DNA of 52,471 bases from Candidatus Delongbacteria bacterium (GCA_016937995.1 JAFGVM010000061.1:1-52471), one strand, 5' to 3'; numbered from the stretch's first letter, positions 7,549 through 44,532 are shown. Made by a program: numbers and translations. Notes: a model not told the origin generated them from the sequence alone.

Positions 7549-7613
7549 TGTCATTGCGGTCTCCGATCCGGAATCTAATCCCGATTTATCGGGAGAATCA
7601 AGTTCAGAATGAC
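7549..7613. repeat. TGTCA...TGAC palindromic element with nested TCCCGATTTATCGGGA
   Basis: TGTCATTGCGGTCTCCGATCCGGAATCT, then the 16-bp palindrome at 7579-7594, then GAATCAAGTTCAGAATGAC. Confidence 0.75.
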
Positions 7614-7617
7614 GGGT

Positions 7618-8646
7618 TTAGATAACTTCTAATCTTAATATTTTCTTCCTGATACTCGCAAGTCTTGGTATTTCCATCATTTTCGGATAATCTTTTTCAA
7701 CCATGGACAGATAGCTTTTATACCAGAAAAGGAAATCTTCATGCTCCATATAATTCTTCAGTCCTTTTTTATTGAAATACCAGGGTTTAAATCCGGAGTA
7801 ATGACATCCGCAAAGATACTTCAATCCGGGATATCCGTTGAATGAACTGAATTTTATATCAATACTTTTCCACTGTCCCGACCATCTGATAGTGAAATAC
7901 TGCATGTCTGGCCATTTGAAAAGATCTCCGACAAGTTTTTTTATCTCAGGTCGTTCAACATCTTTCACTATACTTTCAAGTTCTTTCTTCGAAGTATCAA
8001 ATACATAGATAGATCCATTCAGTCCAAGATTTGCAACATCATACAGAGGTCTGTCAGTTATTTCTTTAGGAATATCAGCACCGTGAGGAGCATCAGGTTC
8101 ATATCTTTTATGCCAGTTCCATTTGCCTTCATTTTCAATTGACTCAGGATAGACATACTTCCCGTTCTCGTCCCATTCAAGACAATTTGATTTTTTTTCA
8201 TTCAGCATACCTGCAGGAGCTCCGATATTGAAGAGTGAATCATAATGTCTCAATGGATAAACATCTGCATCCAGGATACATATCCTTTCATAGTTCAAAC
8301 CATATCCACCATCAGGACCAAGCAGTAAAGAATTAAGTCTTGTAAACCATAGAGGTCTGTCCTCTCTTCCTTTTCGTTCTTTGTGAGGAACGAATATTCT
8401 TTTCACTCTGATAACATGATCATAGATCATTTTCAAAGGTTTTATAGTTTCTTCATCTATCTCTTCAGTGACCATGCAAACAGTATCAGCCTGTGAATTC
8501 TGTTTTTTCAAACCATAAGCTAATAACAATGTTGAAGCAAGATAGCTGTCATTCATCATCAGGAATGTAACGAAAGCGAACCTTGATGAACCATCAGGTC
8601 GCTTCATGTTTTCTGGTGCTTTGAATTGTGAGAAGAAGTCTTTCAT
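7618..8646 (-). CDS. Glycosyltransferase family 8 (glycogenin-like)
   Basis: AFVTFLMMNDSY, FTRL, LDAD (DxD), LNGS, DMQ, HYSGFKPW motifs. Start moved to 8646 because the ORF-track extension lies inside a repeat. Confidence 0.8.
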   Translation of the reverse strand: MKDFFSQFKAPENMKRPDGSSRFAFVTFLMMNDSYLASTLLLAYGLKKQNSQADTVCMVTEEIDEETIKPLKMIYDHVIRVKRIFVPHKERKGREDRPLWFTRLNSLLLGPDGGYGLNYERICILDADVYPLRHYDSLFNIGAPAGMLNEKKSNCLEWDENGKYVYPESIENEGKWNWHKRYEPDAPHGADIPKEITDRPLYDVANLGLNGSIYVFDTSKKELESIVKDVERPEIKKLVGDLFKWPDMQYFTIRWSGQWKSIDIKFSSFNGYPGLKYLCGCHYSGFKPWYFNKKGLKNYMEHEDFLFWYKSYLSMVEKDYPKMMEIPRLASIRKKILRLEVI

Positions 8647-8666
8647 ATTGTATTTTTGTCTTTTAT

Positions 8667-8757
8667 AAAAGTCACATTGAGTTTGCCTGCTCCGATTCAT
8701 CGGAGAAATGTCAGACTTTTGAAATCAAGTCTTAGTCTTCGATTAACTCAGACTGAC
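8667..8757 (-). repeat. MITE-like element (inverted copy of 40654-40733) with nested CCGATGAATCGG insert
   Basis: Reverse complement begins GTCAGTCTGAGTTAATCGAAGACTAAGAC, nearly identical to 40654-40682, and ends AACTCAATGTGACTTTT. Confidence 0.85.
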
Positions 8758-8763
8758 TTGATT

Positions 8764-9174
8764 TTATCCTATCGATCGTAAGTAATCTTCAAGTATTACC
8801 TGAGCAGCCAGGGCATCTATTCTTTCTTTATTCTTTCCTGTTTTCTGTCCCATTTCGTGAATTATCTGATGGGCTCTTACAGTTGAAAAACTTTCATCGA
8901 AAAGAACTATTTCTAATCCAAGTTCTTTCAACTTCTCTGCAAATTTCTCAACGTGTTCAGTTTTTTTTGTTTTCTGACCATCTAATCCCATAGGGTGACC
9001 AAGAATTATCAATTCCACTTCATTTTCAATGATAATTTTTTTAAGTTCTTTTATAATATTATCATCACCCATATTCTTTATTGTTTTGAAAGGTGATGAA
9101 ATTATCTGCATAGGGTCAGTCATAGCTAAACCTATACGAACTTCACCGTGATCTATTGAAAGTATTCTGGACAT
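8764..9174 (-). CDS. ruvX: RuvX/YqgF RNase H-fold nuclease (pre-16S rRNA processing)
   Basis: ILSIDHGEVRIGLA, DESFST, IDALAAQVILEDYL. Confidence 0.92.
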   Translation of the reverse strand: MSRILSIDHGEVRIGLAMTDPMQIISSPFKTIKNMGDDNIIKELKKIIIENEVELIILGHPMGLDGQKTKKTEHVEKFAEKLKELGLEIVLFDESFSTVRAHQIIHEMGQKTGKNKERIDALAAQVILEDYLRSIG

Positions 9175-9231
9175 TTTGTTTTCTAAGTTTATTAATACAA
9201 GCGGAATATATTAAAAAAAGACATTTTTTAC

Positions 9232-9318
9232 AACATCCAATATTCAACAAGGAATGTTCAATATCCAAGGGGTTGTGTCAACTACACCCGAAAAAGACGC
9301 GATAAATCGCATCTGTAC
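9232..9318 (+). repeat. Composite intergenic repeat (AATATCCAA-type motif, degenerate GGGG..CCC hairpin, AGACGCG hairpin)
   Basis: AACATCCAATATTCAACAAGGAATGTTCAATATCCAAG, then GGGTTGTGTCAACTACACCC, then AGACGCGATAAATCGCATCT. Confidence 0.7.
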
Positions 9319-9428
9319 GGAAAGTATACGATTTATTTTTGTTGATTAATTCAAGAATTATTGCTACTTTAGAAGTGAGTTATTATATAAAAAAGATTTT
9401 TTATTCTACAAATATTTCGGAGGCTAGC

Positions 9429-11531: not shown

Positions 11532-11555
11532 ATCGCATCTATACCTGAAGGATTT

Positions 11556-11581
11556 AGGCGGTCAGATGACCGTCTTTTTTT
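11556..11581 (+). terminator. Rho-independent terminator
   Basis: AGGCGGTCA-GA-TGACCGTCT followed by a T-tract, 25 bp after the stop. Confidence 0.8.
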
Positions 11582-11670
11582 ATTGTTTTACAATTGATTA
11601 TAGTCTTATAAATTCTTATTAATGTGTAAGTAATATAAAAGAAGCAAAAAGATATTTTAACCGGAGACAT

Positions 11671-14364
11671 TTGATGTCAAAGAAACTTTTTCTAATAGAT
11701 GGATATGCATTGATATACAGAGCATTCTTTGCATTCGGAACAAAACCGTTAATTACAAAAGAAGGATTCAATGTTAGTGCATTATATGGTTTTTTCAACT
11801 CGCTTTTCACATTAATAGAAAAAGAAGATCCTGAATATATGGCGATAGTACTTGATACAAAAGCGCCAACATTCAGGCATAAAATATATCCTCAGTACAA
11901 GGCTACCAGAGAAAAAATGCCGGAAGAATTAAGTAATCAGATCCCTCTTCTCTATGAAATAATTGAAGCAACAAATATCACTACTATTTTCAAAGATGGT
12001 TTTGAGGCGGATGATCTGATAGGTGTAATAGCAAAACAGGCATCAGAGGAAGGATTTGAAACTTACATTTATTCTTCGGATAAAGACCTTGCCCAATTAG
12101 TGACTGAGAATGTGTTCCTCTATGACCCAAAAGAAATATCTGTTCTGGACCGCGAAGGAATTAAAAAGAAATTCGAACTTTATCCTGAACAGATAATAGA
12201 TTTTTTATCTCTGATGGGAGATAACTCCGATAATATTCCCGGTGTTCCAAAGATAGGGAAGAAGACCGCGATAAAACTGCTACTGGAATTTGGGACTTTG
12301 GAAAATATTTACGAAAATCTGGATAATATCAAAGGCAATGCAATAAGAGAATCGCTGGAGAATAATAGACATTTAGCAGATCTGTCTAAGAAACTTGTAA
12401 CAATAGACACGACCATAGAAATTGATATTGATATTGAAGATACTCATGTAAAGACTCACGATTATGAAAAATTATCCGATTACTTTTTCAAGCTAAATAT
12501 GAAAAAACTTCTGAGATATCTCGAAGAATACAAGGGAGTTGAAACTAAACTGGAAAAAGTTCTAGAATATGATCCTGAAGTTCAGAAATATACTGAGATA
12601 AAAAGCAAAGAAGAGATAGAAGAATTGATAAAAGAGGTAAAAACTAAAAAAAAGTTATCAGTTTTTGCTGAACTGACAGGAAATAATCCATTGGATTTCA
12701 GAATAAAAGGACTGGCAATCTCTACAAAAGAAAATGAAGTGTCATATATAAAAAGTATAGAAAATACCAATAATGAAAGTCAATTAAGCTTATTTCAAGA
12801 AAAAGTAGACAGCATTGAAGATACTCTGTTACTGCTGAAACCTCTTTTCGAGAATCAGAATATTAAATTTATAGGCTATAATTTAAAACCGATGATCCAT
12901 GCTTTGTATAATCACGGTATATCATTTGACGGAAAGATATTTGATCTTCTAATAGCGGACTATATAATGTACTCATCGAACTTCAATCATAGTTTATCTG
13001 CAAGAATATATAAGCTTTTGAACTATAAGATGATCGACCCTAGATCAGATTCTTACAGTGAAGATATCAAAAGTTGTGAAAGAGCTGAGCTGTTGTTCAG
13101 GCTATACTTCAGATCAAAAGAAAAATTTGTCATTGAAAAGGAATTACACTCGGTTTTCGCAGATATAGAAATACCATTAGTTCCAGTTTTAATAGAAGCT
13201 GAGAGAAATGGAATAATCGTTGACCGTGACTATCTGCAGAACATGTCCAATGAGATCAAAGAAGAAACAAAAAAGATAGAGGTCGGTATTTATGAACTAT
13301 CAGGAGAGAAATTCAACATTGATTCTCCAAAGCAGTTAAGTGAAGTTCTTTTTGAAAAATTAAACTTCAAGCATGGCAGGAAAGGAAAAAGTGGAACCTA
13401 TTCCACTGATCAAAGTGTTCTCTCAAAGCTTGCCTCAGAGGGAAATGTAATCGCAGAACATTTATTGAAATACAGAGAGCTGACAAAGTTAAATAACACT
13501 TATGCTGAGGGATTGTTAAAATATATCAACGATAGTACAGGCAGGATACACACTTCATATTTACAATACGTTGTATCTACAGGAAGATTATCCTCGGTGA
13601 ATCCTAATCTTCAGAATATTCCGATCAAGAATGAAGAAGGTGAAAAGATCAGAAAAGCATTCAAGTGTAAAAAAGGATATAAATTGCTGGCAGCCGATTA
13701 TTCACAAATAGAGTTACGTATACTTGCCCATTTCTGCGGAGATGAAAATTTGATCGAAGCTTTCAATAATAACATTGATATTCACACTGCTACAGCGTCA
13801 AAGTTATTTAATGTGCCTTTAGAAGATGTTGATAAAGAGTTAAGATCAAAAGCAAAGACAGCAAATTTCGCTGTACTTTACGGTAAATCGAAATTCGGTC
13901 TCAGTGAGGACATGAATATAAGCTATGAAGAAGCTTCTGAGTTCATTGATAATTATTTTTCTCAGTTCATAAAGATAAAAGAATACATCGACGATACTAT
14001 CGTATATCTTAAGCAGAACGGTTATGTTAAAACACTTTTCGGACGGAAAAGAGAATTCCCGGAAGCCAGATCTTCAGATAAAAATGTTCTTAATGCTGCG
14101 AATAGAGCTGCAGTGAACGCTCCTATTCAGGGTACCTCAGCAGATATAATCAAGATAGCAATGATAGAAATTCATAAAAAGATCGCAAAATTTAGTGCCA
14201 GGATGTTACTGCAGGTCCATGATGAATTAATATTTGAAGTTAAAGAAGAAGAGATCGAGTCATTTTCATTGTTCGTGAAGGATATCATGGAAAATGTTAC
14301 CAAACTTCGTGTACCGTTAACTGTCAACATTGGAGTGGGAGATAATTGGCTCGAAGCACATTAG
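11671..14364 (+). CDS. polA: DNA polymerase I
   Basis: 5'-3' exonuclease (LIDG, EADD, DKDL, GDNSDNIPGV) and polymerase motifs TGRLSS, ADYSQIELR, QGTSADIIK, LQVHDEL. Confidence 0.97.
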   Translation: MMSKKLFLIDGYALIYRAFFAFGTKPLITKEGFNVSALYGFFNSLFTLIEKEDPEYMAIVLDTKAPTFRHKIYPQYKATREKMPEELSNQIPLLYEIIEATNITTIFKDGFEADDLIGVIAKQASEEGFETYIYSSDKDLAQLVTENVFLYDPKEISVLDREGIKKKFELYPEQIIDFLSLMGDNSDNIPGVPKIGKKTAIKLLLEFGTLENIYENLDNIKGNAIRESLENNRHLADLSKKLVTIDTTIEIDIDIEDTHVKTHDYEKLSDYFFKLNMKKLLRYLEEYKGVETKLEKVLEYDPEVQKYTEIKSKEEIEELIKEVKTKKKLSVFAELTGNNPLDFRIKGLAISTKENEVSYIKSIENTNNESQLSLFQEKVDSIEDTLLLLKPLFENQNIKFIGYNLKPMIHALYNHGISFDGKIFDLLIADYIMYSSNFNHSLSARIYKLLNYKMIDPRSDSYSEDIKSCERAELLFRLYFRSKEKFVIEKELHSVFADIEIPLVPVLIEAERNGIIVDRDYLQNMSNEIKEETKKIEVGIYELSGEKFNIDSPKQLSEVLFEKLNFKHGRKGKSGTYSTDQSVLSKLASEGNVIAEHLLKYRELTKLNNTYAEGLLKYINDSTGRIHTSYLQYVVSTGRLSSVNPNLQNIPIKNEEGEKIRKAFKCKKGYKLLAADYSQIELRILAHFCGDENLIEAFNNNIDIHTATASKLFNVPLEDVDKELRSKAKTANFAVLYGKSKFGLSEDMNISYEEASEFIDNYFSQFIKIKEYIDDTIVYLKQNGYVKTLFGRKREFPEARSSDKNVLNAANRAAVNAPIQGTSADIIKIAMIEIHKKIAKFSARMLLQVHDELIFEVKEEEIESFSLFVKDIMENVTKLRVPLTVNIGVGDNWLEAH

Positions 14365-14456
14365 AATATCCAATGATGAAGATCAATTCCGTAAAGACGT
14401 GATTTATCACGTCTCTATTTATGCCTCGATTCCCGTGTCTAGCACGAGAATGACTA
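14364..14456 (+). repeat. Composite intergenic repeat cassette after polA
   Basis: GAATATCCAATGATGAAG, then GTAAAGACGTGATTTATCACGTCTCTA, then GATTCCCGTGTCTAGCACGAGAATGACTA. Confidence 0.8.
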
Positions 14457-14478
14457 AAAGAAATACAAGGACGAAATT

Positions 14479-18381: not shown

Positions 18382-18504
18382 TTGATTACGCTGATCATAA
18401 TTTTCTTACAATGGATTCTTGTTATAAAAATAAATAGAACTTTTAGACAAAAAATTAGTAAATTGTATACTGTTATACAACAATTTAAACATAAGGAAAA
18501 AATA

Positions 18505-19017: not shown

Positions 19018-19033
19018 CAATGGTTAAGGAATA

Positions 19034-22730: not shown

Positions 22731-22745
22731 AAGATAGTTGAGAGT

Positions 22746-22833
22746 GTAGGGGACGCCCAACGATCGACCCCGAAACTGATTAACAAACATAAAAATAGAT
22801 CCCCGTGTGCCCGATGAATCGGGAAGGATGACA
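22746..22833 (+). repeat. Degenerate GTAGGGG REP plus AGATCCCCG...GGATGACA element with nested CCCGATGAATCGGG
   Basis: 22797-22833 matches 6482-6510 at both ends but carries the 14-bp palindrome at 22810-22823. Confidence 0.75.
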
Positions 22834-22854
22834 AAATATAAAGAGGAGAATAAT

Positions 22855-23868: not shown

Positions 23869-23893
23869 AGAAGTTGTAGTACTACGTCTCTAC
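23865..23893. repeat. GTAGAG...CTCTAC REP-like palindrome between convergent genes
   Basis: GTAGAGAAGTTGTAGTACTACGTCTCTAC; its GTAG includes the lpxD TAG stop. Confidence 0.7.
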
Positions 23894-23895
23894 AT

Positions 23896-24312: not shown

Positions 24313-24383
24313 ATTCTTTCCTCTTTTGATCCACAGTTTTAAACCTTTTGTTATCTGAGTTTAGCCCCGCTGCGATAACTAAT

Positions 24384-27696: not shown

Positions 27697-27697
27697 T

Positions 27698-27724
27698 AAA
27701 AGCGAGTCTTAAAAGACTCGCTTT
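27698..27724. terminator. Bidirectional terminator hairpin
   Basis: AAAGCGAGTCTT-AA-AAGACTCGCTTT between convergent genes. Confidence 0.8.
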
Positions 27725-27739
27725 ACAGATCTTATTTTT

Positions 27740-28963: not shown

Positions 28964-29005
28964 AGTACATTAGTTTAAAAGGGACGAGTTAATGAATCGT
29001 TTTTA

Positions 29006-30526: not shown

Positions 30527-30555
30527 GTATATTACCTTGAGTTATGTTAATTTTT

Positions 30556-30627
30556 ACGAGACGTGAAATCACGTCTTTACGGAATACTTGATATTTGGAT
30601 ATTCCGTGTTGATCATTGAATATTGGA
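30556..30627 (-). repeat. Composite intergenic repeat cassette after guaB
   Basis: Minus strand: CCAATATTCAATGATCAACACGGAATATCCAAATATCAAG-TATTCC-GTAAAGACGTGATTTCACGTCTC; shares ATTCCGTAAAGACGTGATTT exactly with the polA copy. Confidence 0.8.
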
Positions 30628-32082
<1,455 letters not shown>

Positions 32083-32109
32083 TTATCCTTGTGCTATTTA
32101 TATTTTTTA

Positions 32110-32137
32110 ACAAAAAGCCGCCATGAATGGCGGCTTT
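32110..32137 (-). terminator. Terminator hairpin in the guaB 5' leader
   Basis: Minus strand AAAGCCGCCAT-TC-ATGGCGGCTTTTTGTT, about 30 nt before the guaB ATG. Confidence 0.75.
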
Positions 32138-32236
32138 ACAGTTTATATAAGACCTATTATGTACAAGATATGATTATTTTTCCCTACCATTCTAATTTCT
32201 GCTAAGTTCCTGTTCATCTGAATTTTAATTTCGCAA

Positions 32237-32265
32237 AAAATAACATAACGTACAGCTTTTGTCAA
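32237..32265 (-). promoter_or_regulatory. Sigma70-type promoter facing guaB
   Basis: Minus strand TTGACA-17 nt-TATTTT with a TGn extended -10. Confidence 0.65.
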
Positions 32266-32318
32266 GTATATTATAAAGAAAATTAAATGACTTAATTACT
32301 TATTACTTTAATTCAGGT

Positions 32319-34694: not shown

Positions 34695-34748
34695 AAAATT
34701 ATAAAATTTAATTACAATTTAACGAATTCATTTCGTATATTAACAATT

Positions 34749-34827
34749 ACCCTGGGGGTGCGTTAAGCTGAGAGAGACGATGTCTCAACCCTTGGAACCT
34801 GATTCGGACAATTCCGACGTAGGGAAG
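34749..34827 (+). ncRNA. TPP riboswitch aptamer
   Basis: GGGGTGC...GCTGAGA...ACCC...AACCTGAT..GGAcAAT.CC..CGTAGGGA signature directly upstream of thiS. Confidence 0.95.
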
Positions 34828-34847
34828 CGGTGAAAATTATTGGACTT

Positions 34848-34875
34848 ATACCGCTTTGTAGCGGTATTTTTTATT
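34848..34875 (+). terminator. TPP riboswitch expression-platform terminator
   Basis: ATACCGC-TTTGTA-GCGGTAT plus T-tract; AAGCGGT (34825-34831) can pair with ACCGCTT (34850-34856) as antiterminator. Confidence 0.85.
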
Positions 34876-34885
34876 TGGAGAATTA

Positions 34886-35083
34886 ATGAAGATCGTAGTA
34901 AATGGAAAAGAAGAAAGTACTGGTTCGAAGACAATATTGGACTTTATTTTAGATAAGGAATTGGAACCTAAGACAATAATAATTGAATATAATCTTAAAA
35001 TCGTAAAAAAGGATTCTTGGGATTCAATTGAACTTCAAGATGGTGATAATCTGGAAATATTGAACTTCGTAGGCGGTGGGTAA
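34886..35083 (+). CDS. thiS: Sulfur carrier protein ThiS
   Basis: 65 aa, VNG start, C-terminal FVGGG. Confidence 0.95.
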   Translation: MKIVVNGKEESTGSKTILDFILDKELEPKTIIIEYNLKIVKKDSWDSIELQDGDNLEILNFVGGG

Positions 35084-35854
35084 ATGAGTGATATATTGAA
35101 ATTAGGAAATAAAGAGTTTTCGAACAGACTTTTAACAGGAACAGGTAAATTTTCTTCAAAGAAGCTTATCACAGAAATGCTTAATGCAAGTGGTTCTGAA
35201 ATGATAACTGTAGCACTAAGAAGAGTTGATTTTGCAGCTGGTAATGAGAATATATTAGAATATATTCCTAAAAATGTAACATTATTACCTAATACATCAG
35301 GTGCCAGAACAGCAGAAGAAGCTGTCAGGATCGCAAGGATCGCCAGAGAAACTGGATGTGGAGATTTTATTAAGATAGAAATAATCACTGACACAAAATA
35401 TTTAATGCCGGATAATGAAGAAACTTTGAAAGCAACAAAGATCTTAGCAGACGAAGGTTTTCTAGTACTTCCGTATGTTATGCCTGATCTAACCTATTCC
35501 TATAAACTTGTAGAAGCCGGTGCGGCAGCAGTAATGCCATTAGGTTCTGCGATAGGTTCTAACCGAGGAATAAGATTAAAAGAGATCATAAGAATATTGA
35601 TTGAAAACATAGATATCCCTATAATCGTAGATGCCGGGATTGGAAGACCATCACAGGCTGCTGAAGCAATGGAAATGGGTGCAGATGCTGTTTTGGTTAA
35701 TACTGCGATCTCTGCTGCAGAAGATCCAGTGTTAATGGGAAGAGCTTTTTCCTTAGCAGTTGAAGCTGGAAGATTAGCATATATTTCAAAATTAGCTGAG
35801 GAAAGCAGGACTGCGAACGCTTCCTCACCGTTAACAGGATTCTTAAGGGAATGA
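35084..35854 (+). CDS. thiG: Thiazole synthase ThiG
   Basis: [43 protein letters not shown]. Confidence 0.96.
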
Positions 35855-35960
35855 ATATCCAACAACCAACACGGAACATCCAATTATGAAGTAGGGGCGT
35901 AATTCATTACGCCCATAAAAAAAAGATTGCCACGGATTTATCAAATCCTCGCAATGACAA
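35853..35960 (+). repeat. Three-part composite repeat cassette (copy 1)
   Basis: GAATATCCAACAACCAACACGGAACATCCAATTATGAA, GTAGGGGCGTAATTCATTACGCCC, AGATTGCCAC-GGATTTATCAAATCC-TCGCAATGACAA. Confidence 0.88.
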
Positions 35961-35971
35961 CAAAGGAAAAC

Positions 35972-37078
35972 ATGTCATTCATAGATTTATTAAAACGATA
36001 CGAAAATTTTAATTTTAAAGAATATATATCAAAGGTCACTTTAGAAAAAGTTGATAATAGTTTGAGGAAAGATAAACTGACAGAGAATGATCTTCTGAAT
36101 CTTCTTTCTCCAGTTGCAGCTGAAAGGATTGAAGAAATGGCTCAGCTTTCTCACAAAAAGACTGTTCAGTATTTTGGAAGAACTATCTCACTTTATATTC
36201 CTTTGTATATCTCAAATTACTGCAGTAACGAATGTACATACTGTGGTTTTCATGCTGGAAACAAAATGAAACGAAGAAAGTTATCTATCGAAGAAATTGA
36301 GATAGAAGCTAAAGAAATTGCAAAAACAGGTATTAAGCATATTCTTGTTCTCACCGGTGAAGCTGAAAAAGTTACTCCGATGGAATATTTGGTCGAAGTA
36401 ATTGAGCTTCTAAAAAAGTATTTCCCTTCGATATCTATAGAGATGTTCCCAATGTCAGTAGAAGATTATACGATATTGAAAGAAGCCGGAGTAGACGGAT
36501 TAACAGTTTATCAGGAAGTATATAACAGAGATATTTACAAAGAAGTGCATACCTTCGGAAGAAAAAGTGATTACGACTTCAGAATTGAAACACCTGAAAG
36601 AGGAGCAAAAGCAGGTTTCAGGCTCGTGAATATCGGTCCTTTATACGGTCTGGGTGAAATTGCTCCCGAGGCTTTTATCACTGCAGTTCATGCAAAATAT
36701 CTTGATGATAAATATCCCGATACAGAGATCGCAGTATCATTTCCAAGGATAAATTCAGCTGAAAATGAATTCAAACAAAAGTACAGACTTGATGACAGAA
36801 CTTTTGTTCAATATATGACGGCTTTCAGATTATTTCTTCCTAGAGTTGGAATAAACATTTCCACCAGAGAAAAAGCAGAATTCAGAGATAATGTTATACC
36901 TTTGGGGGTTACAAGATTTTCTGCAGGATCAAGAACAGAGGTAGGAGGGTATACTGACCATCACATTGATGACGTTCCTCAATTTGATATCTCTGATACA
37001 AGGACAGTTGCTGAGACAGTAAAAGTGATAGAGGAAAGAGGATTTCAGGCAGTAATGAAGGACTGGGAGTTGATTTAA
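35972..37078 (+). CDS. thiH: 2-iminoacetate synthase ThiH (radical SAM)
   Basis: PLYISNYCSNECTYCGF, YQE, STRE, SAGS, QFDISD; start moved to 35972 (SD AAGGA; the upstream extension lies in a repeat). Confidence 0.94.
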   Translation: MSFIDLLKRYENFNFKEYISKVTLEKVDNSLRKDKLTENDLLNLLSPVAAERIEEMAQLSHKKTVQYFGRTISLYIPLYISNYCSNECTYCGFHAGNKMKRRKLSIEEIEIEAKEIAKTGIKHILVLTGEAEKVTPMEYLVEVIELLKKYFPSISIEMFPMSVEDYTILKEAGVDGLTVYQEVYNRDIYKEVHTFGRKSDYDFRIETPERGAKAGFRLVNIGPLYGLGEIAPEAFITAVHAKYLDDKYPDTEIAVSFPRINSAENEFKQKYRLDDRTFVQYMTAFRLFLPRVGINISTREKAEFRDNVIPLGVTRFSAGSRTEVGGYTDHHIDDVPQFDISDTRTVAETVKVIEERGFQAVMKDWELI

Positions 37079-37108
37079 GTATGAGTTATAAGTTATGAGA
37101 TATGAGTT
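37078..37108 (+). repeat. Short heptamer tandem repeat
   Basis: AGTATG AGTTATA AGTTATG AGATATG AGTT directly after the thiH stop. Confidence 0.6.
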
Positions 37109-37142
37109 CGCTGGTTACAACGCTCAAGGTTAAAGGGGAATT

Positions 37143-38174
37143 ATGAATAATACGTATAGAATAATTGATGCGAATATAAATCGAATGGCTGAAGGGATTC
37201 GAGTTCTGGAAGATCATTCAAGATTTATTTCGGAGAATAAAGAGATAAATGAAAAACTCAGAAATATAAGACACAATTCAAGAAAGATACTAATAGAACT
37301 GGACAGTGATCTTATCTCAGCAAGAGAATCTTTGAGTGATAACGGATTGGAAATTTCTGGGAAATCTAAGCTGGATAATAAAACAACTGATAAAGAGCTT
37401 ATAATTTCAAATTTCAAAAGGATCCAGGAAGCTGTAAGAAGTATCGAAGAAAATCTTAAGGTCATTGATGAATATGACAAAGGTAAGCAGTTCGAACAGA
37501 TCAGATTTGAAGTCTATGATATTGAAAAACAGTATTTGTCATCATTGAAATTTCAACTTCCTAAAGGAATTTATGGTCTCACAGCAGAAAAGTATTCCAA
37601 AGGACGATCAAATATTGAAGTTGTAAAAGAAATGATCAAAGGTGGAATCAAGATCATTCAATACAGAGAAAAAGAAGAAGACAGATCCAGGAAAGAAATG
37701 CTTATAGAATGTCTCAAAATAAGAGAGTTGACGAAAGAAAAGAATGTTGTTTTCATAGTTAACGATCATTTGGATATTGCTATTCTTTCAAAGGCGGATG
37801 GAATACACTTAGGTCAGGATGACCTCTCAGTTCAAGAAATCAAAAAAATTAATGGGAACCTGATAATTGGAGTTTCAACCCATACGCCTGAACAAGCTCA
37901 AAAAGCGATTGCAGATGGTGCAGACTATATAGGTGTAGGACCGATATTTAAAACAAGTACAAAGAAGAATGTTTGTGATCCAGTCGGTTTAGAATATTTA
38001 GATTACGTAGTAAAAAATACTGATATTCCTTTTGTAGCTATTGGAGGTATTAAAGAGGATAATATTCATCAGGTGATTGAAAAAGGTGCTAAGAGTATTG
38101 CTTTGGTAACTGAAATCGTTGGATCTTACGATATTGGGGATAAAATCAAAAAATTAAATAATAAATTAAAATAA
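37143..38174 (+). CDS. thiE: Thiamine-phosphate synthase with N-terminal ThiD2-type domain
   Basis: N-terminal [19 protein letters not shown]...[15 protein letters not shown]-terminal QYREK, VND, HLGQDD, STH, GPIF.T.TK, AIGGI. Confidence 0.92.
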
Positions 38175-38188
38175 ATGTGAGAATTAAA

Positions 38189-39475
38189 ATGAATTACACA
38201 ACTCAGATGGACGCAGCATCAAAAGGGATAGTAACTCCTCAGATGAAAGATGTTCTAAAAAGAGAAAGTATCAGTCAGGAGAAACTTTTGCAGCTGATGA
38301 GCGAAGGTAAGATCACATTACCTGCTAATAAGAATCACAAGAATCTAAAAGGTATAGCCATTGGAACAGGATTAATTACCAAAGTTAATGTTAATCTCGG
38401 AGTCTCAGAGGACTGCTTTAATATTGACATGGAAATGAAAAAGGTCAATGCCGCTATTGAAATGAAGACCGATGCGATAATGGATCTGAGTACTTTCGGT
38501 GACACACAGACTTTCAGAAAGAAACTTGTAGAAGTATCACCTGTAATGCTCGGAACAGTACCAATTTATGATACTGTTACTCAATTTAAAGATAAACCGA
38601 TTAAAGATATTACTGTAGATGAATGGTTCGAGATAGCTGAAAGACATGCATCTGACGGTATTGATTTTCTTACGATCCATGCGGGATTGACTAAAGTTGT
38701 TGTAGAGAGAATTAAGAAAAATATGCGTCTGACACATGTAGTAAGTCGTGGTGGTTCTATTTTGATGGAGTGGATGGAAGCAAACAATGCAGAGAATCCG
38801 TTCTACGAATATTTTGACAGATTATTGGATATTTGTGTAAAGTATGATGTTACTATCAGTATCGGTGACGGATTAAGACCAGGTAGTTTAAAGGACAGTA
38901 CAGATGCTCCTCAGATACAGGAATTAATTTTCTTAGGTGAGTTAACAAAACAGGCATGGTCAAGAAAAGTTCAGGTTATGATAGAAGGACCTGGACATGT
39001 TCCTTTGAACGAGATCGTTACGAATATGCAGATACAGAAGAAATTATGTCATGGGGCACCATTTTATGTATTAGGTCCATTGGTTACTGATATTGCTCCG
39101 GGTTATGATCACATTACTTCAGCTATCGGTGGAGCTATTGCCGCTTCGAACGGTGCTGATTTTCTTTGTTATGTTACTCCGGCAGAACATCTTAGACTTC
39201 CAGACCTGAACGATATGAAAGAAGGTATCATAGCATCAAGAATTGCTGCTCACGCTGCTGATATTGCTCTTGGAATTCCGGGTGCAATGGATTGGGATAA
39301 TGCTATGAGTAAAGCAAGACATGATATGGATTGGAAAGCTCAGATAGATCTTGCTATTGATCCGGTTAAAGCAAAGGAATATCGTGAATCTGCGGCACCA
39401 TTGGACGAAGAAGTATGTTCAATGTGCGGTGATTTCTGTGCGATTAAGAGAAGCAACCGTGTGTTGGAAAAATAA
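38189..39475 (+). CDS. thiC: Phosphomethylpyrimidine synthase ThiC
   Basis: [47 protein letters not shown]; operon context. Confidence 0.94.
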
Positions 39476-39483
39476 TTGATAAT

Positions 39484-39550
39484 GTAGGGGCGTATCGCCA
39501 TACGCCCGAACAAATTGTCACCCTGATCCCGATTTATCGGGACAGGGTCT
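39484..39550 (+). repeat. GTAGGGGCG REP plus TGTCACCCTGA element with nested TCCCGATTTATCGGGA
   Basis: GTAGGGGCGTATCGCCATACGCCC (39484-39507); TGTCACCCTGA-TCCCGATTTATCGGGA-CAGGGTCT (39516-39550). Confidence 0.85.
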
Positions 39551-39585
39551 TTCTTTTTAAAATGAAGAAAATATCAAAATAATTC

Positions 39586-39614
39586 TTGCTTTATATTTCT
39601 TAATATACTATATT
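39586..39614 (+). promoter_or_regulatory. Sigma70-type promoter
   Basis: TTGCTT-17 nt-TATATT upstream of the redoxin gene. Confidence 0.5.
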
Positions 39615-39637
39615 GGATAAGTGCTAAATATGGTATA

Positions 39638-40234
39638 ATGAAACAAGGATGGAAAATGAAAAGTATCAAGAATTATACAGAGTTAAAGAGCAACCTGTCA
39701 CTAACAGAGAAAACCTATCTTCTTCTTTACAAGAATGGTTCTGAAATAAGTGATTGTGCATTGAAAAATATTACAAAAGTTTCGAAAGGCATTTCAGGAA
39801 TTACATTTTTGAAGTCTGATGTTTCACAGGTAAAAGATATTCACGGAAAATATAAGATCAGTTCGGTTCCTTCATTGTTATATTTTGAGAAGGGAAAATT
39901 CATTAACGTGATCAAAGGATGCCATGAAGAATCTTTCTTTAACCTTCATTTTACAAATAATGTAGCTGTTGTAAAAAAGAAAGTTGAAGCTGCTCAGAAA
40001 AGAGTTATTGTTTATAGCACTCCAAGTTGTTCATGGTGTACAAAGATCAAAAATTATTTTAAAGAAAAAAATATCAGATATACTGATGTTGATGTTTCAA
40101 AAGATCAGAGAAAGATGGATGAACTGGTTAAAAAAAGTGGACAAATGGGAGTTCCTCAGACTGAGATCGGAAGCACGATCGTTGTAGGATTTGATAAAGC
40201 AAAGATCAACAAATTACTGAATATCTTCCGATAA
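39638..40234 (+). CDS. Thioredoxin-like / glutaredoxin (YruB/NrdH-like) fusion
   Basis: N-domain with SVPSLLYF cis-Pro motif but no CxxC; C-domain YSTPSCSWC, GQMGVP, VGFD. Confidence 0.85.
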   Translation: MKQGWKMKSIKNYTELKSNLSLTEKTYLLLYKNGSEISDCALKNITKVSKGISGITFLKSDVSQVKDIHGKYKISSVPSLLYFEKGKFINVIKGCHEESFFNLHFTNNVAVVKKKVEAAQKRVIVYSTPSCSWCTKIKNYFKEKNIRYTDVDVSKDQRKMDELVKKSGQMGVPQTEIGSTIVVGFDKAKINKLLNIFR

Positions 40235-40342
40235 ATCGGAACAGGCACAACACGGAATAACCAATATCCAAGCAGGGGCGTTATTCATAACGCCCGACTA
40301 AAAAAGATTGCCACTCCCGATAAATCGGGATCGCAATGACAA
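40219..40342 (+). repeat. Three-part composite repeat cassette (copy 2) with two nested CCGATAAATCGG palindromes
   Basis: GAATATC[TTCCGATAAATCGGAACAGGC]ACAACACGGAATAACCAATATCCAA, GCAGGGGCGTTATTCATAACGCCC, AGATTGCCAC[TCCCGATAAATCGGGA]TCGCAATGACAA. Confidence 0.88.
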
Positions 40343-40357
40343 CACAAGGAGAATAAA

Positions 40358-40642
40358 ATGAAAGAGCTAATACCATTAAATGAAAATGTTTTAATTTCAC
40401 CTGAAAAAATTGAAGAGAAGACTGCTGGTGGAATTATTTTACCTGATACTGCTTCAGACGAAAAACCTTTGATAGGAGTTGTGAAAGCTATAGGTAATAT
40501 CGAAAATCTTGAAATATCTATTGGTGATAGAGTTATTTTCAAGAAATATTCCGGCACAGATATTGAGTTCGAGAAGGAAGAATTTGTTGTAGTGCCTTAT
40601 GCTGATATTTTAGTAAAGATCGTTGAGATGGAAGAAATTTAA
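40358..40642 (+). CDS. groES: Co-chaperonin GroES
   Basis: PLNENVLI, mobile loop EKTAGGIILPD, GDRVIFKKYSG; 94 aa. Confidence 0.92.
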   Translation: MKELIPLNENVLISPEKIEEKTAGGIILPDTASDEKPLIGVVKAIGNIENLEISIGDRVIFKKYSGTDIEFEKEEFVVVPYADILVKIVEMEEI

Positions 40643-40653
40643 ATTTTAATAAT

Positions 40654-40733
40654 GTCAGTCTGAGTTTATCGAAGACTAAGACCTTATGGTTTGATCAAGA
40701 GTCTAACACTTCGATGAACTCAGTGTGACTTTT
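40654..40733. mobile_element. MITE-like element with 21-bp imperfect terminal inverted repeats
   Basis: GTCAGTCTGAGTTTATCGAAG versus the reverse complement of CTTCGATGAACTCAGTGTGAC (18/21 match); second copy at 8667-8757. Confidence 0.65.
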
Positions 40734-40748
40734 ATGTTTCCAAATATT

Positions 40749-40774
40749 AAGCCCTGTAATTCGGGGTTTTTTTT
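40749..40774 (+). terminator. Probable terminator after groES
   Basis: AAGCCCTG-TAATT-CGGGGT plus a long T-tract (stem has G-U pairs). Confidence 0.55.
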
Positions 40775-40813
40775 ATTACAAAAAGCCAAAAAATACCTTA
40801 AATTCAATTCATT

Positions 40814-42409
40814 ATGAAAATGAAAGACATAACGGTAAAATATCAGGATCAATTGAAAGTAATTGCATCAGCGATCATTATTGGATTATTCTACCCACCA
40901 ATGAGTAGCAGCTATATTGTATTGTTCTTCCTTGTCCCGTTCATATGTGTGTTGAACAAAAAGGATAGTAATGGTATAGTAAATGGTTTTATTTTCGGTT
41001 TCTTCATTTCTCTTTCTTCATCATACTGGATAATGTCAAATGCAGGAGCTCCTGTCTGGCTCAGGATCGTGAGCGGTATCGGTTTCTTTTCTTTCTCGGG
41101 ATTTTACTATGCAGTAATGGGTGGAGTATTTTCACTGGTCAAGAAAGCTTTTCCAAATAAGGCTATATGGTTTCTGCCGCTAGTATGGGGTGGAATGGAA
41201 CATCTGATGCTCTACAAAGAGTTCGCATTCCCATGGACCCTTCTGGCCAATGCTTTTACTACCAAGATTGAATTTATTCAGATATCAGAATATTTCGGTG
41301 TGATATTTGTTTCAATGACCCTGGTACTTTTCTCAGTCTTAATTTACAGGATATCTGAAAATCTTCGTACATCTAACAAGGATAAAGCTCAGAAAGCTTC
41401 AGTAATTAAATTTGTATCAATTCATGGATTATCACTAGTTGTTCTATTTTCGACAGTCTATCTCTGGGGAAGTTCGCGGTATAAATATTTCTCAGAGAAA
41501 GGTAAAGATCTTCCTGTAGTCAAAGTTGCAATGATACATGCAGGTTTGGATATTGATTATAAATGGCAGAAATCTAATTTCCGAAAGATAGTAGAGGGTC
41601 AGTATGCTCAAACTGATTCAGTAATGATTTTCAAGCCTGATCTTGTCCTTTGGGGAGAAACTAATTTTCCAAAGTATCTGGAAAATTATCCAGGTTCGGT
41701 CAAGAAATTCAAAAAATACAGTATTGATAATGATGTAGATATTTCTACAGGTGCACTCGGATTTAATTATTACGAAGATACAGAAAAAATTGAAAAATTC
41801 AATAGTGTTTTCTTTTTCTCCGGAGATAAAGAATATACCCGTTACGACAAAACAATGCTGGTTCCTTTCGGAGAGGCTTTCCCTTATTCTAACATACTCA
41901 CTTTTCTTAAGGATATTTCTCTCGGTCAGGCAAACTTTGACAGGGGAGATAACAAAGAATTATTCGAGATGAGATCCGGTAATAAATTTATTACAACGAT
42001 CTGCTATGAGGGTATTTTTCCTTACTACAATGCAAGATTCGTTTCTATGGGTGCTGAATTTCTCACAAATGTTTCAAATGATGCCTGGTATGAGAACACG
42101 GATGAAGTTTACCAGCACAGCAGATTCAATATTTTCAGATCCATTGAGAATCGAAGAACCACTGTGAGGTTGGCAAATAAAGCTGAAAGTTCAATTATTT
42201 ATCCATCTGGAAAACAGGAAATATTATTTGACAACGAAGGACCATTTTGCAAAGTAATTGATGTTCCTGTTAATTCAGAACAGACATTTTTCACAAAGAA
42301 CTATAAGATCATTGCAGGATTCATAATAGGATTAAATTTAATGTTGATCGGATGGTCGATTATAATCATAAAGATTAGAAGAAAAAAATATTTAACCACA
42401 GAGAGGTAA
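40814..42409 (+). CDS. lnt: Apolipoprotein N-acyltransferase
   Basis: Multiple TM helices, FPW, WGE, YDK..LVPFGE, ICYE, SNDAW. Confidence 0.93.
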   Translation: MKMKDITVKYQDQLKVIASAIIIGLFYPPMSSSYIVLFFLVPFICVLNKKDSNGIVNGFIFGFFISLSSSYWIMSNAGAPVWLRIVSGIGFFSFSGFYYAVMGGVFSLVKKAFPNKAIWFLPLVWGGMEHLMLYKEFAFPWTLLANAFTTKIEFIQISEYFGVIFVSMTLVLFSVLIYRISENLRTSNKDKAQKASVIKFVSIHGLSLVVLFSTVYLWGSSRYKYFSEKGKDLPVVKVAMIHAGLDIDYKWQKSNFRKIVEGQYAQTDSVMIFKPDLVLWGETNFPKYLENYPGSVKKFKKYSIDNDVDISTGALGFNYYEDTEKIEKFNSVFFFSGDKEYTRYDKTMLVPFGEAFPYSNILTFLKDISLGQANFDRGDNKELFEMRSGNKFITTICYEGIFPYYNARFVSMGAEFLTNVSNDAWYENTDEVYQHSRFNIFRSIENRRTTVRLANKAESSIIYPSGKQEILFDNEGPFCKVIDVPVNSEQTFFTKNYKIIAGFIIGLNLMLIGWSIIIIKIRRKKYLTTER

Positions 42410-42410
42410 T

Positions 42411-42537
42411 GAATTTCCAATATCCACCAAGGAATATTCAATGACGAAGGAGGGGCGAATCAATATTCGCCCGTAGATTGCCACACACCGAAGGTGTTCG
42501 CAATGACAAACAGTAAAGACGCTCCACTTTGCGTATC
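42411..42537 (+). repeat. Three-part composite repeat cassette (copy 3) plus degenerate GTAAAGACG REP
   Basis: GAATTTCCAATATCCACCAAGGAATATTCAATGACGAA, GGAGGGGCGAATCAATATTCGCCC, AGATTGCCAC-ACACCGAAGGTGT-TCGCAATGACAA, GTAAAGACGC...GCGTATC. Confidence 0.88.
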
Positions 42538-42554
42538 ATAAGAAAAGGAAATAA

Positions 42555-43730
42555 ATGAATACAATATTTTTATTAAAATACGGTGAACTCACTTTAAAAG
42601 GTAAGAACAGAAGAGATTTTGAAAATAAAGTGATCAGAAATGCAAAATACGTTCTTAAAGATCATAATATTGAAGTAGAAAAGATCTTTGGAAGATTTGT
42701 TATTAAAACAGATTCTGTGAATGAGGAAGAGATCAAAGAGATCGGTCATAAATTATCAAATTATGTCTTTGGATTAGCCAATGTTTCTATAGGAGTTACT
42801 GTTGATAACGAACTTGACAAGATCAATGAAGTAGCTTTGGAACAGGCGAAGAAATATGTTGACAAATATCATCCGGAAACTTTTAAAATTGAAGTTAGAA
42901 GACCATTCAAGAATATGCCTGGAACATCTACAAAGATAGCTGCTGATATAGGAGCTTATGTATGGAATGCATTACCTGATCTTAAAGTAAAACTTGTTGA
43001 TCCAGATATGACAATAATGGTCGAGATACTTGAGGATTTTACGATAATATCATCAGAGAAATTACAGTGCCTTAAAGGTCTTCCTGTAGGAACTTCAGGG
43101 AAAGTGGGTCTTTTACTTTCTGGTGGTATTGATTCTCCTGTTGCAGGTTATATGGCTCAGAAAAGAGGTTGTTATCTTAACTGCATATATTTCCACTCAC
43201 CACCTCATACTCCTCAAAAGACCAAAGACAAGGTTTTTGCTCTGGCAGAAAAACTAAAGCAATATCAGCAGGGGATCAGAATTTTTACTGTAAATTTTAC
43301 AGAGATTCAGTTAATGCTCAGAAAAACTACAGATATGCAATACTTCGTGCTCCTAGGTCGAAGAATGATGATCAGGATATCAAATGAAATTGCAAAAAGA
43401 TATAAATTTAAAGCTTTCATAACAGGCGAAAATCTTGGTCAGGTATCGAGTCAGACCATAGAGAATCTTCACTGTATGAACATTCTTGCTAAAATACCCA
43501 TCCTGAGACCATTGATCACCTACGATAAAAATGAAACCATGGAAATAGCTCGAAAAATTGGAACATACGAAACTTCCATTTTGCCTTACGATGATTGCTG
43601 CACGTTATTTCTTCCACCAAACCCTAGAACTAAAGCAAAAGTTAGGCAGCTTGAATTTGAAGAGGCAAAATTAGATTTTCAGAGTCTTGTTGATAGGGCT
43701 GTCGAGACTGTTGAAATGGTTGATCTGTAA
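42555..43730 (+). CDS. thiI: tRNA 4-thiouridine synthase ThiI (no rhodanese domain)
   Basis: YGELTLKGKNR, THUMP region, SGGIDS PP-loop, GENLGQVSSQT, DCC. Confidence 0.94.
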   Translation: MNTIFLLKYGELTLKGKNRRDFENKVIRNAKYVLKDHNIEVEKIFGRFVIKTDSVNEEEIKEIGHKLSNYVFGLANVSIGVTVDNELDKINEVALEQAKKYVDKYHPETFKIEVRRPFKNMPGTSTKIAADIGAYVWNALPDLKVKLVDPDMTIMVEILEDFTIISSEKLQCLKGLPVGTSGKVGLLLSGGIDSPVAGYMAQKRGCYLNCIYFHSPPHTPQKTKDKVFALAEKLKQYQQGIRIFTVNFTEIQLMLRKTTDMQYFVLLGRRMMIRISNEIAKRYKFKAFITGENLGQVSSQTIENLHCMNILAKIPILRPLITYDKNETMEIARKIGTYETSILPYDDCCTLFLPPNPRTKAKVRQLEFEEAKLDFQSLVDRAVETVEMVDL

Positions 43731-43734
43731 CTTT

Positions 43735-43929
43735 ATGAACGGAACAGATAGATCAAATATAAAAGAAGGTCTTAAAGTTAATATAGTTTTAAAACAAGAT
43801 CAGAGAAGTGGGAAATTAACTGAAGGGATCGTTAGAGATATTCTTACAAAATCACCTTCTCATCCTCATGGTATCAAAGTAAGATTAGAAAGTGGTGATG
43901 TTGGTCGAGTAAAAGAGATCATATTATGA
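43735..43929 (+). CDS. YwbE/DUF2196 family small protein
   Basis: IVLKQDQRSGKLTEG...HPHGIKVRL...GRV; ATG at 43735. Confidence 0.85.
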   Translation: MNGTDRSNIKEGLKVNIVLKQDQRSGKLTEGIVRDILTKSPSHPHGIKVRLESGDVGRVKEIIL

Positions 43930-44372
43930 AACTTTATATTGATGGGGATGCACTCCCCAATGTGCTTAAACCAATTTTGAATAGAGCAATAGATCGTTTA
44001 AATATCCAAACTATCGTGATTGCAAACAAACCTGTTAATGTTGGTAGATCAAAATATATTGAATATATACTGGTCGGTGCAGGAGCTGATATTGCAGATG
44101 ATAGAATTGTTGAAATGGTTAAGGAAGGGGATCTTGTTATTACAGCAGATATTCCGCTTGCTGACAAGATCATTACGAAGAATGCTCATGCTTTGGATCA
44201 TAGGGGAAAGTTTTTCACGGAGGATAATATTAAACATTATCTTTCGATAAGGAATGTGATGCAGGAATTTCGTGATGTCGGGGTTCAGACACAGGGTCCA
44301 CCACCTTTTAAGCAGAAAGATGCACATGAATTTGCAAATCAGCTGAATAACTTTTTAGCAAAGAATTGTTAG
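43926..44372 (+). CDS. YaiI/YqxD (UPF0178, PIN-like) family protein
   Basis: YIDGDALP, ADD.I, GDLVITADIPLA, GPPPF. Confidence 0.88.
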   Translation: MKLYIDGDALPNVLKPILNRAIDRLNIQTIVIANKPVNVGRSKYIEYILVGAGADIADDRIVEMVKEGDLVITADIPLADKIITKNAHALDHRGKFFTEDNIKHYLSIRNVMQEFRDVGVQTQGPPPFKQKDAHEFANQLNNFLAKNC

Positions 44373-44391
44373 GATAAAAATATATTTTCAC

Positions 44392-44532
44392 GTTACTTTT
44401 ACATGGCAAAAAGTAACCATCCCGATACATCGGGACAAGTCTGCCATTAACACTCCTGGCAGGGTGGGAAGAGACGTAGTCCGTCTACGTCTTTACTAAC
44501 TCACATATCTTTTATCCCGAGAATCAGGACAA
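44392..44532. repeat. Cluster of short palindromes
   Basis: GTTACTTTT/AAAAGTAAC, TCCCGATACATCGGGA (44420-44435), AGACGTAG/CTACGTCT REP (44470-44496), degenerate TCCCGAGAATCAGGA (44515-44529). Confidence 0.7.

Follow-up and report, generated by a model that had tools for sequence, protein, structure and literature searches.

A 16-nt palindrome nested in the repeat mosaics of a Candidatus Delongbacteria contig

The spread of very small palindromic repeats has long been a question, raised by repetitive extragenic palindromes (REPs) that lack a REP-associated tyrosine transposase (RAYT), by CGTC repeats and by the small dispersed repeats (SDRs) of cyanobacteria. The SDRs of Nostocaceae (SDR1-8), which go back to Elhai et al. 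in 2008, are reportedly 21–27 nt long. Here we describe a palindrome of 16 nt that occurs seven times in a 52,471-nt stretch of Candidatus Delongbacteria DNA (GCA_016937995.1, JAFGVM010000061.1:1-52471; this whole stretch is called the window). An earlier note made from the sequence alone had proposed that this palindrome is written into the existing hairpins of several unrelated repeat families by an enzyme acting in trans.

According to the passages cited here, the Nostocaceae SDRs lie nested in other repeats and in minitransposons, and SDR5 is inserted precisely between the third and fourth nucleotide of the palindrome HIP1 (PMC5861425, PMC4390886). Di Nocera et al. describe two REP super-families, GTAG and CGTC, some members of which are inserted in other palindromes, and the CGTC REPs are given there as having no dedicated transposase (PMC3733652). 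In Pseudomonas putida, the insertion sequence (IS) ISPpu9 is reported to target REP hairpins (PMC8450116, PMC3733652). The small hairpin and double-hairpin elements of mitochondria are described as invading the intergenic DNA of certain lineages while close relatives stay free of them, and those of Allomyces as being without flanking duplications (PMC2800124). Template switching at inverted repeats is reported to create and maintain perfect hairpin arms in a single step (PMC8794818, PMC5941160).

The palindrome, its distribution and its footprint

The 12-nt core of the palindrome, CCGATNNATCGG, has seven exact matches in the window (starting at 7581, 8692, 22811, 39529, 40228, 40317 and 44422). 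Dinucleotide-preserving shuffles (n = 100) gave a mean of 0.02 matches, and none of the 100 reached seven. The full 16-mer, also written as the motif TCCCGATNNATCGGGA beside a TCCGAT sub-type, was found six times with up to two mismatches where 0.06 matches were expected; allowing three mismatches added a single chance-like match in coding sequence at 48794. All eight sites listed in the earlier note exist, the third starting at 22809 and carrying one mismatch, and the eighth (44515–44529) plausibly being a decayed copy (Table 1).

The copies fall into two sub-types. Five have TCCCGAT arms (A-type, including the mismatched copy at 22809), and two (B-type, at 8691 and 40226) have TCCGAT/ATCGGA arms, a symmetric difference that leaves the arms shorter or altered. 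The B-type copies also have a common 7-nt tail, RCAGGCA, that is not host sequence, and together with the symmetric arm difference this points to copying rather than convergence. An ACAGG or GCAGG tail had been ascribed to several copies; it is present at 8691 (read on the reverse strand) and at 40226, but the corresponding bases at 39527 belong to the host. The 16-nt palindrome is perfect in four of the seven copies (7579, 39527, 40315 and 44420), and the arms are conserved while the central dinucleotide differs (TT, TC, GA, TT, AA, AA and AC).

The gene model used here scored 4140 of the 52,471 nt (7.9%) as non-coding and 92% as coding. All seven copies lie in non-coding DNA or at gene edges, and none lies within coding sequence. 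There are 16 occurrences of the half-site TCCCGAT/ATCGGGA, of which nine are intergenic, each of them inside a palindrome, and seven fall in the ≈48 kb of coding DNA (both strands), which by estimate is near the expectation from composition. Since every intergenic half-site is part of a palindrome, the unit is the palindrome and not the half-site, and an uptake-signal-like half-site model was ruled out. A genome-wide palindrome of the HIP1 type was ruled out by the absence of copies from coding sequence.

Relatives were gathered by a scan of genome contigs with an alignment of Lnt; the Lnt protein of the window (40814–42409) has metagenome-assembled genomes of Candidatus Delongbacteria as its best named relatives (78–80% identity). 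The 80 loci obtained (1,259,676 nt) consist of two syntenic loci, L001 (21.6 kb, matching window 30108–49824) and L002 (4.9 kb, matching window 36858–42114), ten additional loci from Delongbacteria and 68 from other phyla. The gene DNA of the window is 74–83% identical to that of L001 and L002. The core is absent from all 80 loci, including the 12 Delongbacteria loci (152,627 nt) and 26 kb of syntenic DNA. The spacers also differ in length. That between thiC and grx measures 162 nt in the window and ≈10–25 nt in the relatives (by eye), that between grx and groES 123 vs. ≈10 nt, and that between lnt and thiI 145 vs. 0 nt. As the orthologous spacers are so much shorter, the composite repeats and palindromes were either gained in the lineage of the window or lost in both relatives.

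The five filled/empty pairs that the earlier note had drawn from within the window are as described there; their hosts are numbered 1–5 in Table 1. The empty form of host 1, ACCCTGAAATAAATTCAGGGTGACAA, is also found in L001 at 18560, where it is identical over 27 nt, and the empty form of host 2, CCCCGTGTCAAGCACGAGGATGACAG, in L001 at 18596. An orthologous pair was found at one site, 44420, and to that extent the expectation of filled and empty alleles at orthologous positions was borne out. The window reads ...AAAAAGTAACCA, then TCCCGATACATCGGGACA, then AGTCTGCCATTAA, and the empty site in L001 (14172, within 14172–14241) has AAAGCCT between the same flanks; a paralog in L001 at 18124 has AAAGTCT in place of the palindrome. 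At 40226 the palindrome provides the TAA stop codon of a glutaredoxin-like gene and gives its protein the end ...LLNIFR, which is seen in none of the 15 nearest protein clusters. Because the empty host forms are conserved in L001, the empty state is ancestral and the filled state derived. The view of the palindrome as a derived, lineage-specific insert and not an ancestral core is supported, the Delongbacteria relatives being without it.

Footprints were measured by anchoring on exact flank matches, except for the MITE pair (miniature inverted-repeat transposable element; 8671–8710 vs. 40701–40729), which was aligned by eye. For host 1 the alignment is ambiguous against the window's own empty copy (ATTTAT in both) and clean against the L001 copy. 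No target duplication was found at any of the six compared sites; 7–8 nt of host sequence are lost at five of them and 13–15 nt at one, which confirms that host bases are replaced, as had been proposed. The ends of the unit are not constant (16, 16, 16, 18, 22, and 25 nt). Where bases are added on the 3' side (CA; RCAGGCA), they start like CAGGGT, the 3' flank of the copy resident in host 1.

Table 1. Copies of the palindrome and repeat features of the window. Footprints are given as host nucleotides replaced/nucleotides inserted.
Feature	Position	Strand	Footprint (nt)	Remarks
A-type copy, perfect, TCCCGAT TT ATCGGGA	7579–7594	no strand		2 nt from hairpin AGAT..CGCAATGACA (7549–7576, minus)
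B-type unit	8684–8708	minus	8/25	Host 4, arm of MITE-like hairpin; core TCCGAT TC ATCGGA at 8691–8704; minus-strand reading TTTC-core-GCAGGCA; displaces arm nt CATCGAAG
A-type copy, one mismatch, GCCCGAT GA ATCGGGA	22809–22824	no strand	8/16	Host 2, inside hairpin AGATCCCCGTGT..AGGATGACA (22797–22833); displaces CAAGCACG
A-type copy, perfect	39527–39542	no strand	8/16 (vs. L001)	Host 1, apex of hairpin 39516–49 (minus strand AGACCCTG..CAGGGTGACAA); displaces ATTTATTT
B-type unit, TTCCGAT AA ATCGGA + ACAGGCA	40226–40247	plus	7/22	Host 5, module at 5' end of composite repeat 40213–40348; displaces CAACAAC
A-type copy, perfect	40315–40330	no strand	13–15/16	Host 3, core of scaffold AGATTGCCAC..TCGCAATGACAA (40305–40342); 27 nt upstream of groES start
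A-type copy, perfect, + CA	44420–44437	plus	7/18	Orthologous site; 2 nt after hairpin 44392–44417
Plausible degenerate copy, TCCCGAGAATCAGGA	44515–44529	no strand		Sequence read directly
Empty paralog of host 1, GACCCTGAAATAAATTCAGGGTGACAA	25508–25534	plus		Identical to L001 18560–18586
Empty paralog of host 2, AGATCCCCGTGTCAAGCACGAGGATGACA	6482–6510	plus		Conserved in L001 18583–18630
Scaffold as at 40305, other core	35924–35960	plus		Perfect-hairpin core GGATTT ATC AAATCC
Scaffold as at 40305, third core	42475–42509	plus		Core ACACC GAA GGTGT
MITE-like long hairpin (≈90 nt), empty	40654–40729	plus		Paralog of 8671–8757
Composite mosaic, ≈110 nt	40213–40348	plus		AATATCCAA module, GGGGCG hairpin, AGAT..ATGACAA hairpin; two palindromes
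Conserved non-coding element	44392–44462	plus		Hairpin GTTACTTTT..AAAAGTAAC plus GTCTGCCATTAA..CCTGGCAG; hosts 44420 copy
GTAG-headed GGGGCG hairpins	35891, 39484, 22746			40273 and 42450 without GTAG head
CGTC-type AGACG hairpins	9295, 14395, 30559, 44472
AGAY-stem-loop-stem-RTGACAA family	6482, 14427, 22797, 25508, 35924, 39516 (reverse), 40305, 42475, 7549 (reverse)

Host repeats and the question of hairpin targeting

The spacers of the window are mosaics dense in small hairpin units, similar to bacterial interspersed mosaic elements (BIMEs). On alignment, three modules in constant order form a composite of ≈110 nt at 35848, 40213, and 42406. The first and last of these (35848–35966 and 42406–42513) are palindrome-free paralogs of the one at 40213, and variants are found at 14360–14470, 9228–9330, and 30540–30632 (minus strand). 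The hosts had been taken for unrelated families, which they are not: hosts 1–3 belong to one superfamily with the frame AGAY-stem-loop-stem-RTGACAA, and the composite contains both host 3 and host 5 as modules. A strict scan of the window for AGAY...RTGACAA gave 10 instances vs. 1.7 in shuffles (five intergenic family members, one MITE arm and four chance-like instances in coding DNA), and L001 contains two more.

The scaffold around the copy at 40315 occurs three times, with 22 identical flanking nt and wholly different cores (GGATTTatcAAATCC, TCCCGATaaATCGGGA, and ACACCgaaGGTGT), each of which is a perfect small hairpin with a similar fold geometry. Core replacement is therefore general in this family and not special to the TCCCGAT palindrome. 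Of all the cores, only the palindrome recurs in the window, and no other was seen outside the family. The cores GGATTT..AAATCC and ACACC..GGTGT were rejected as recurrent mini-elements, each being found once in the window and not at all in the 80 loci. Perfect arms despite different apical stems were seen for all four GGGCG hairpins and for three of the four AGACG hairpins. The GGGCG hairpins (35895–35914, 39488–39507, 40276–40295, and 42453–42472) have a common basal stem and four different apical stems; each of these is perfectly complementary, so that every difference is compensated. The apical motif GATWWATC is common to the palindrome, two AGACG hairpins and one core, with seven intergenic occurrences vs. 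0.32 expected.

The claim that the palindrome is written into existing hairpins holds for three of the seven copies (22809, 39527, and 40315), which lie inside AGAY..RTGACAA hairpins. It does not hold for the other four: one lies 2 nt beside such a hairpin (7579), one 2 nt after another hairpin (44420), one in the MITE arm (8691) and one in a non-hairpin module at a stop codon (40226). Superfamily interiors make up ≈4.5% of the spacer DNA, which gives p ≈ 0.003 for three copies out of seven in a post hoc calculation. In a flank-pairing test, which asked for a stem of 4 bp or more around the copy within 6 nt, three of seven copies scored against a background of 26–29%, which is not significant (p 0.26–0.33). 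By predicted folding, two hosts gain stability from the insert, which stacks on them (-11.5 vs. -7.7 and -7.9 vs. -5.6 and -5.8 kcal/mol), a third is slightly weakened (-4.6 vs. -5.3 kcal/mol), and the copy at 8691 disrupts the long MITE hairpin. The palindrome is thus only partly hairpin-targeted.

Several further observations concern these repeats. In all six cases the composite has the orientation of the next gene, lies immediately upstream of it and ends 10–45 nt before the ribosome-binding site, a gene-proximal placement like that described for Neisseria REP2 in the cited passage (PMC3184786). Upstream of thiH, the window (35924–35960) and L001 (5848–5872) both have an AGAT..ATGACAA hairpin with entirely different interiors; either the cores turned over at an orthologous site, or the insertions were made independently. 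Hairpin-like sequences of the form ATTGC...GCAATGACA in two Nostocales loci (L052, ≈7565–7611, and L076, ≈4560–4609) resemble the scaffold termini, and the scaffold frame may extend widely across phyla. Spacers contain the 10-mer ACGTCTTTAC or its complement four to five times (14391, 25561, 30571, 44487, and 42512), partly outside complete AGACG hairpins. Upstream of clpB (7–32, 57–80, and 300–360) a palindrome around GCCATATGGC is present in two copies, together with a long inverted repeat, imperfect and made up of GAGTCTCGGGTC-type units.

The element at 44392–44462 has two palindrome-free copies in L001. There, a non-coding element of ≈200 nt forms direct repeats (14172–14370 and 18124–18320) that flank a 3.9-kb block of six open reading frames (ORFs; one DUF6602, the others without Pfam hits) absent from the window, which retains just the first ≈70 nt (44392–44462) of the element. 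The ≈200-nt element may be a structured RNA, or its copies may mark where an island ends.

Genes of type IX secretion (PorX, PorV/PorQ family, PorU-like) fill the window together with ordinary housekeeping genes. The groES gene (40358–40642) stands alone without a groEL downstream; it has the same place in L002 and is absent from L001, where grx lies almost directly before lnt. A thiamine pyrophosphate (TPP) riboswitch (72.4 bits, 34744–34842) precedes a thiS-like ORF and the thiG-thiH-thiE-thiC operon, whose internal spacers are those invaded by mosaic repeats. It was the only feature to pass an Rfam search, and nothing relevant was found in 35800–44750 at E-values up to 5.

Possible modes of spread

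The palindrome is probably a mobile DNA unit. The data above show that a lineage-specific repeat was copied to at least six sites, each time in place of a few target bases, with variable ends and with propagation of both sub-types. We read it, with a probability of roughly 0.55, as the youngest and smallest layer of the BIME-like mosaic, a non-autonomous unit that was copied in trans to these independent sites. The route that we picture for this, to which we would give somewhat less than even odds, is short-patch copying, with an existing copy as the template while hairpin-rich DNA is replicated or repaired. At a stalled hairpin or close to it, a 3' end, nascent or broken, would switch to an ectopic copy of the palindrome, copy it with a variable end point and then return. 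Template switching within the hairpin would afterwards keep its two arms perfectly complementary. The ectopic template, by which a single 16-mer would have reached unrelated sites, is what we infer here. Short-patch copying would account for the lost target bases, the missing duplication, the units of 16–25 nt that read into an apparent donor flank and the perfect arms. Extra 3' bases that resemble the host-1 flank are what read-through into a donor would be expected to give.

Several points weigh against this reading. The comparison with orthologs does not cover the sites 7579, 8691, and 22809, and for 7579 neither the window nor L001-L012 yielded an empty homolog. Between the B-type tail CAGGCA and the host-1 flank CAGGGT the match extends over CAGG only, by-eye inspection of the junctions for microhomology and conserved boundary dinucleotides found nothing consistent, and the flank-pairing test did not set the sites apart from background. 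Ectopic template switching explains poorly why one 16-mer, and not others, spread to seven sites in 37 kb, and the specificity of this spread looks enzymatic. The seven copies come from one 52-kb contig and each regularity rests on five to six events; the loss of 7–8 nt, the CA/CAGG read-through and the apical motif held in common should be taken as leads, drawn from five to seven events, and not as rules.

An enzymatic origin could take the form of a miniature REP-like unit moved by a RAYT or another Y1 HUH transposase of the IS200/IS605 type, encoded elsewhere in the genome and acting on the single-stranded DNA of extruded hairpins. The missing target duplication agrees with this, being established for the IS200/IS605 family, and so do the three copies in hairpin interiors and the published REPs nested in other palindromes (PMC3733652, in the part cited). 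GTAG-headed, REP-like hairpins occur in the same spacers (35891, 39484, and 22746) and in L001 and L002, and a RAYT-type system may therefore exist in the clade. The spread of one specific 16-mer also suggests sequence recognition and is better explained in this way than by short-patch copying. Yet the palindrome has no GTAG or CGTC head, its perfect symmetry leaves it without the asymmetry that such enzymes use, and it is shorter than the REPs of 20–40 bp described in the cited source (PMC3733652). Variable ends (16–25 nt) and a target loss of 7–8 nt are not known features of the mechanism either. A search of 47 window ORFs revealed no Y1/HUH gene, and transposase, HUH, reverse transcriptase and GIY-YIG families gave no hit (38 ORFs vs. 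NCBIfam and nine vs. Pfam), in agreement with the earlier note, which had seen no candidate enzyme in the window. It had also suggested looking for the enzyme in a gene flanked by copies. The ORF at 7618–8700 (minus strand), which is bracketed by two copies, was rejected as such, being weakly GT8/glycogenin-like (Pfam E-value 0.022; PDB E-value ≈1e-3). On balance we consider a RAYT/HUH enzyme unlikely.

Similarly doubtful is a bolder version of mobility, in which the 16-nt perfect palindrome moves by itself and would be smaller than all mobile DNA described so far. Its spread would proceed by an overwrite reaction that excises ≈8 nt and pastes in the palindrome, preferring AGAY-stem-[core]-stem-RTGACAA hairpins as cassette holders with fixed termini and exchanged cores. 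Such exchange possibly took place even at an orthologous site, the thiG/thiH spacer (35924 vs. L001 5848). If true, this would point to an undescribed system of hairpin-core exchange in an uncultured phylum.

A selected cis-element appears improbable. In this case the palindrome would serve a dimeric DNA-binding protein as its operator, or act as a stabilizing or terminating RNA tetraloop hairpin, and its copies would be retained for their regulation of the neighboring genes. Dimer binding sites typically have dyad symmetry such as its 7-2-7 arrangement, conserved arms around two variable nucleotides fit this, and the copies at 22809, 40315, and 7579 lie 25–45 nt upstream of start codons. The insert also strengthens two host hairpins, and a T-run follows the hairpin at 39527. 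However, the genes beside the copies are functionally unrelated (epimerase, GT8-like, lpxD, glutaredoxin, groES, and an outer-membrane protein), one copy weakens its host hairpin, another disrupts the long MITE hairpin, a sense-strand T-run is found for one of seven copies and Rfam gave no match. Selection alone cannot create 14 specified bases at seven sites that are empty or absent in close relatives, and a copying step would therefore still be required. An intrinsic terminator was ruled out for six of seven copies, the T-run after 39527 (with the host stem) being the only one, and a terminator scan flagged 44438–44417 on the minus strand only. An operator, partition site or nucleoid-protein site is disfavored by the density of the copies (seven in 37 kb) and by their nesting in repeats.

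Two last readings are close to excluded. Reverse polarity, in which the palindrome is the ancestral core that the empty copies lost or overwrote, could draw on the general proneness of palindromes to deletion and on the core at 7549–7576 (TCCGATCCGGA), which could be a collapsed copy, but for hosts 1 and 2 and for the 44392 element it is the empty form that L001 has in common with the window, in some cases base for base, L001-L012 contain no copies, and the empty sites hold unrelated 7–8-mers and not deletion scars. Less probable still is a chance or artefactual origin through an assembly or adapter chimera: the contig is a metagenome assembly and the TTCCGAT arm of one copy resembles what we take to be the end of a common sequencing adapter, but none of the shuffles reached seven copies, synteny with L001 and L002 continues in both flanks, five copies have TCCCGAT arms instead of TTCCGAT, and the copies sit at defined positions in repeat paralogs.

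The window represents an unusually clean natural experiment, with one 16-nt unit and six insertions that can be matched with empty paralogs or an ortholog. A sister species fixes the polarity, and the footprint is consistent (7–8 nt lost, no duplication). Together with the variable 3' read-through and the GATWWATC motif, and given the full genome and population reads, this footprint could discriminate between enzyme-driven transposition and template switching during replication. The inserts also reshape compact operons, expanding spacers of 0–20 nt to 120–160 nt and in one case supplying a new stop codon.

Comparison with known systems

The mitochondrial hairpin elements differ from the palindrome in being organellar and longer, and the passages cited describe neither nesting nor target replacement (PMC2800124). 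Like ISPpu9, the palindrome would be mobile DNA that enters palindromic repeats, but ISPpu9-type elements are full ISs with transposase genes and not non-coding inserts of 16–25 nt. Template switching in the form of quasipalindrome correction fits the perfect, compensated arms in the window; as known, this process works in cis, inside a single inverted repeat, and an ectopic template would go beyond it. MITEs have terminal inverted repeats, a body of 70–300 bp and a target duplication, whereas the unit here measures 16–25 nt, has no duplication and replaces target bases.

The likeness to REPs, BIMEs and REPINs (REP doublets) lies in the small extragenic palindromic units arranged in mosaics, and GTAG- and CGTC-headed hairpins are present in the same spacers. 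All seven copies, as counted in the window, are extragenic. Neither GTAG nor CGTC adjoins any of them, however, and the flanks differ at every site. The palindrome is also perfect (in four of seven copies) where REPs are usually imperfect, has a 16-nt core vs. 20–40 bp, does not form doublets, and is a nested guest and not a host.

Among the matches listed in a literature search for "Delongbacteria" none had the term in its title or abstract, and within that search no such very small nested repeats are described in this phylum so far. The nearest precedents are the cyanobacterial SDRs and the nested REPs, the former being closest in kind. As far as the cited sources describe them, SDR1-8 are likewise very short, hairpin-forming, nested in repeats, confined to one lineage and without a known enzyme. 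They are, however, cyanobacterial and reportedly longer (21–27 nt), and SDR5 has one precise target, while the Delongbacteria palindrome is a perfect one of 16 nt with varied targets that lose 7–8 nt. Measured against the reported SDR definition, the palindrome shows both nesting and filled/empty pairs at a smaller size. We therefore file it as a very small nested dispersed repeat and, going by these descriptions, set it beside the SDRs.

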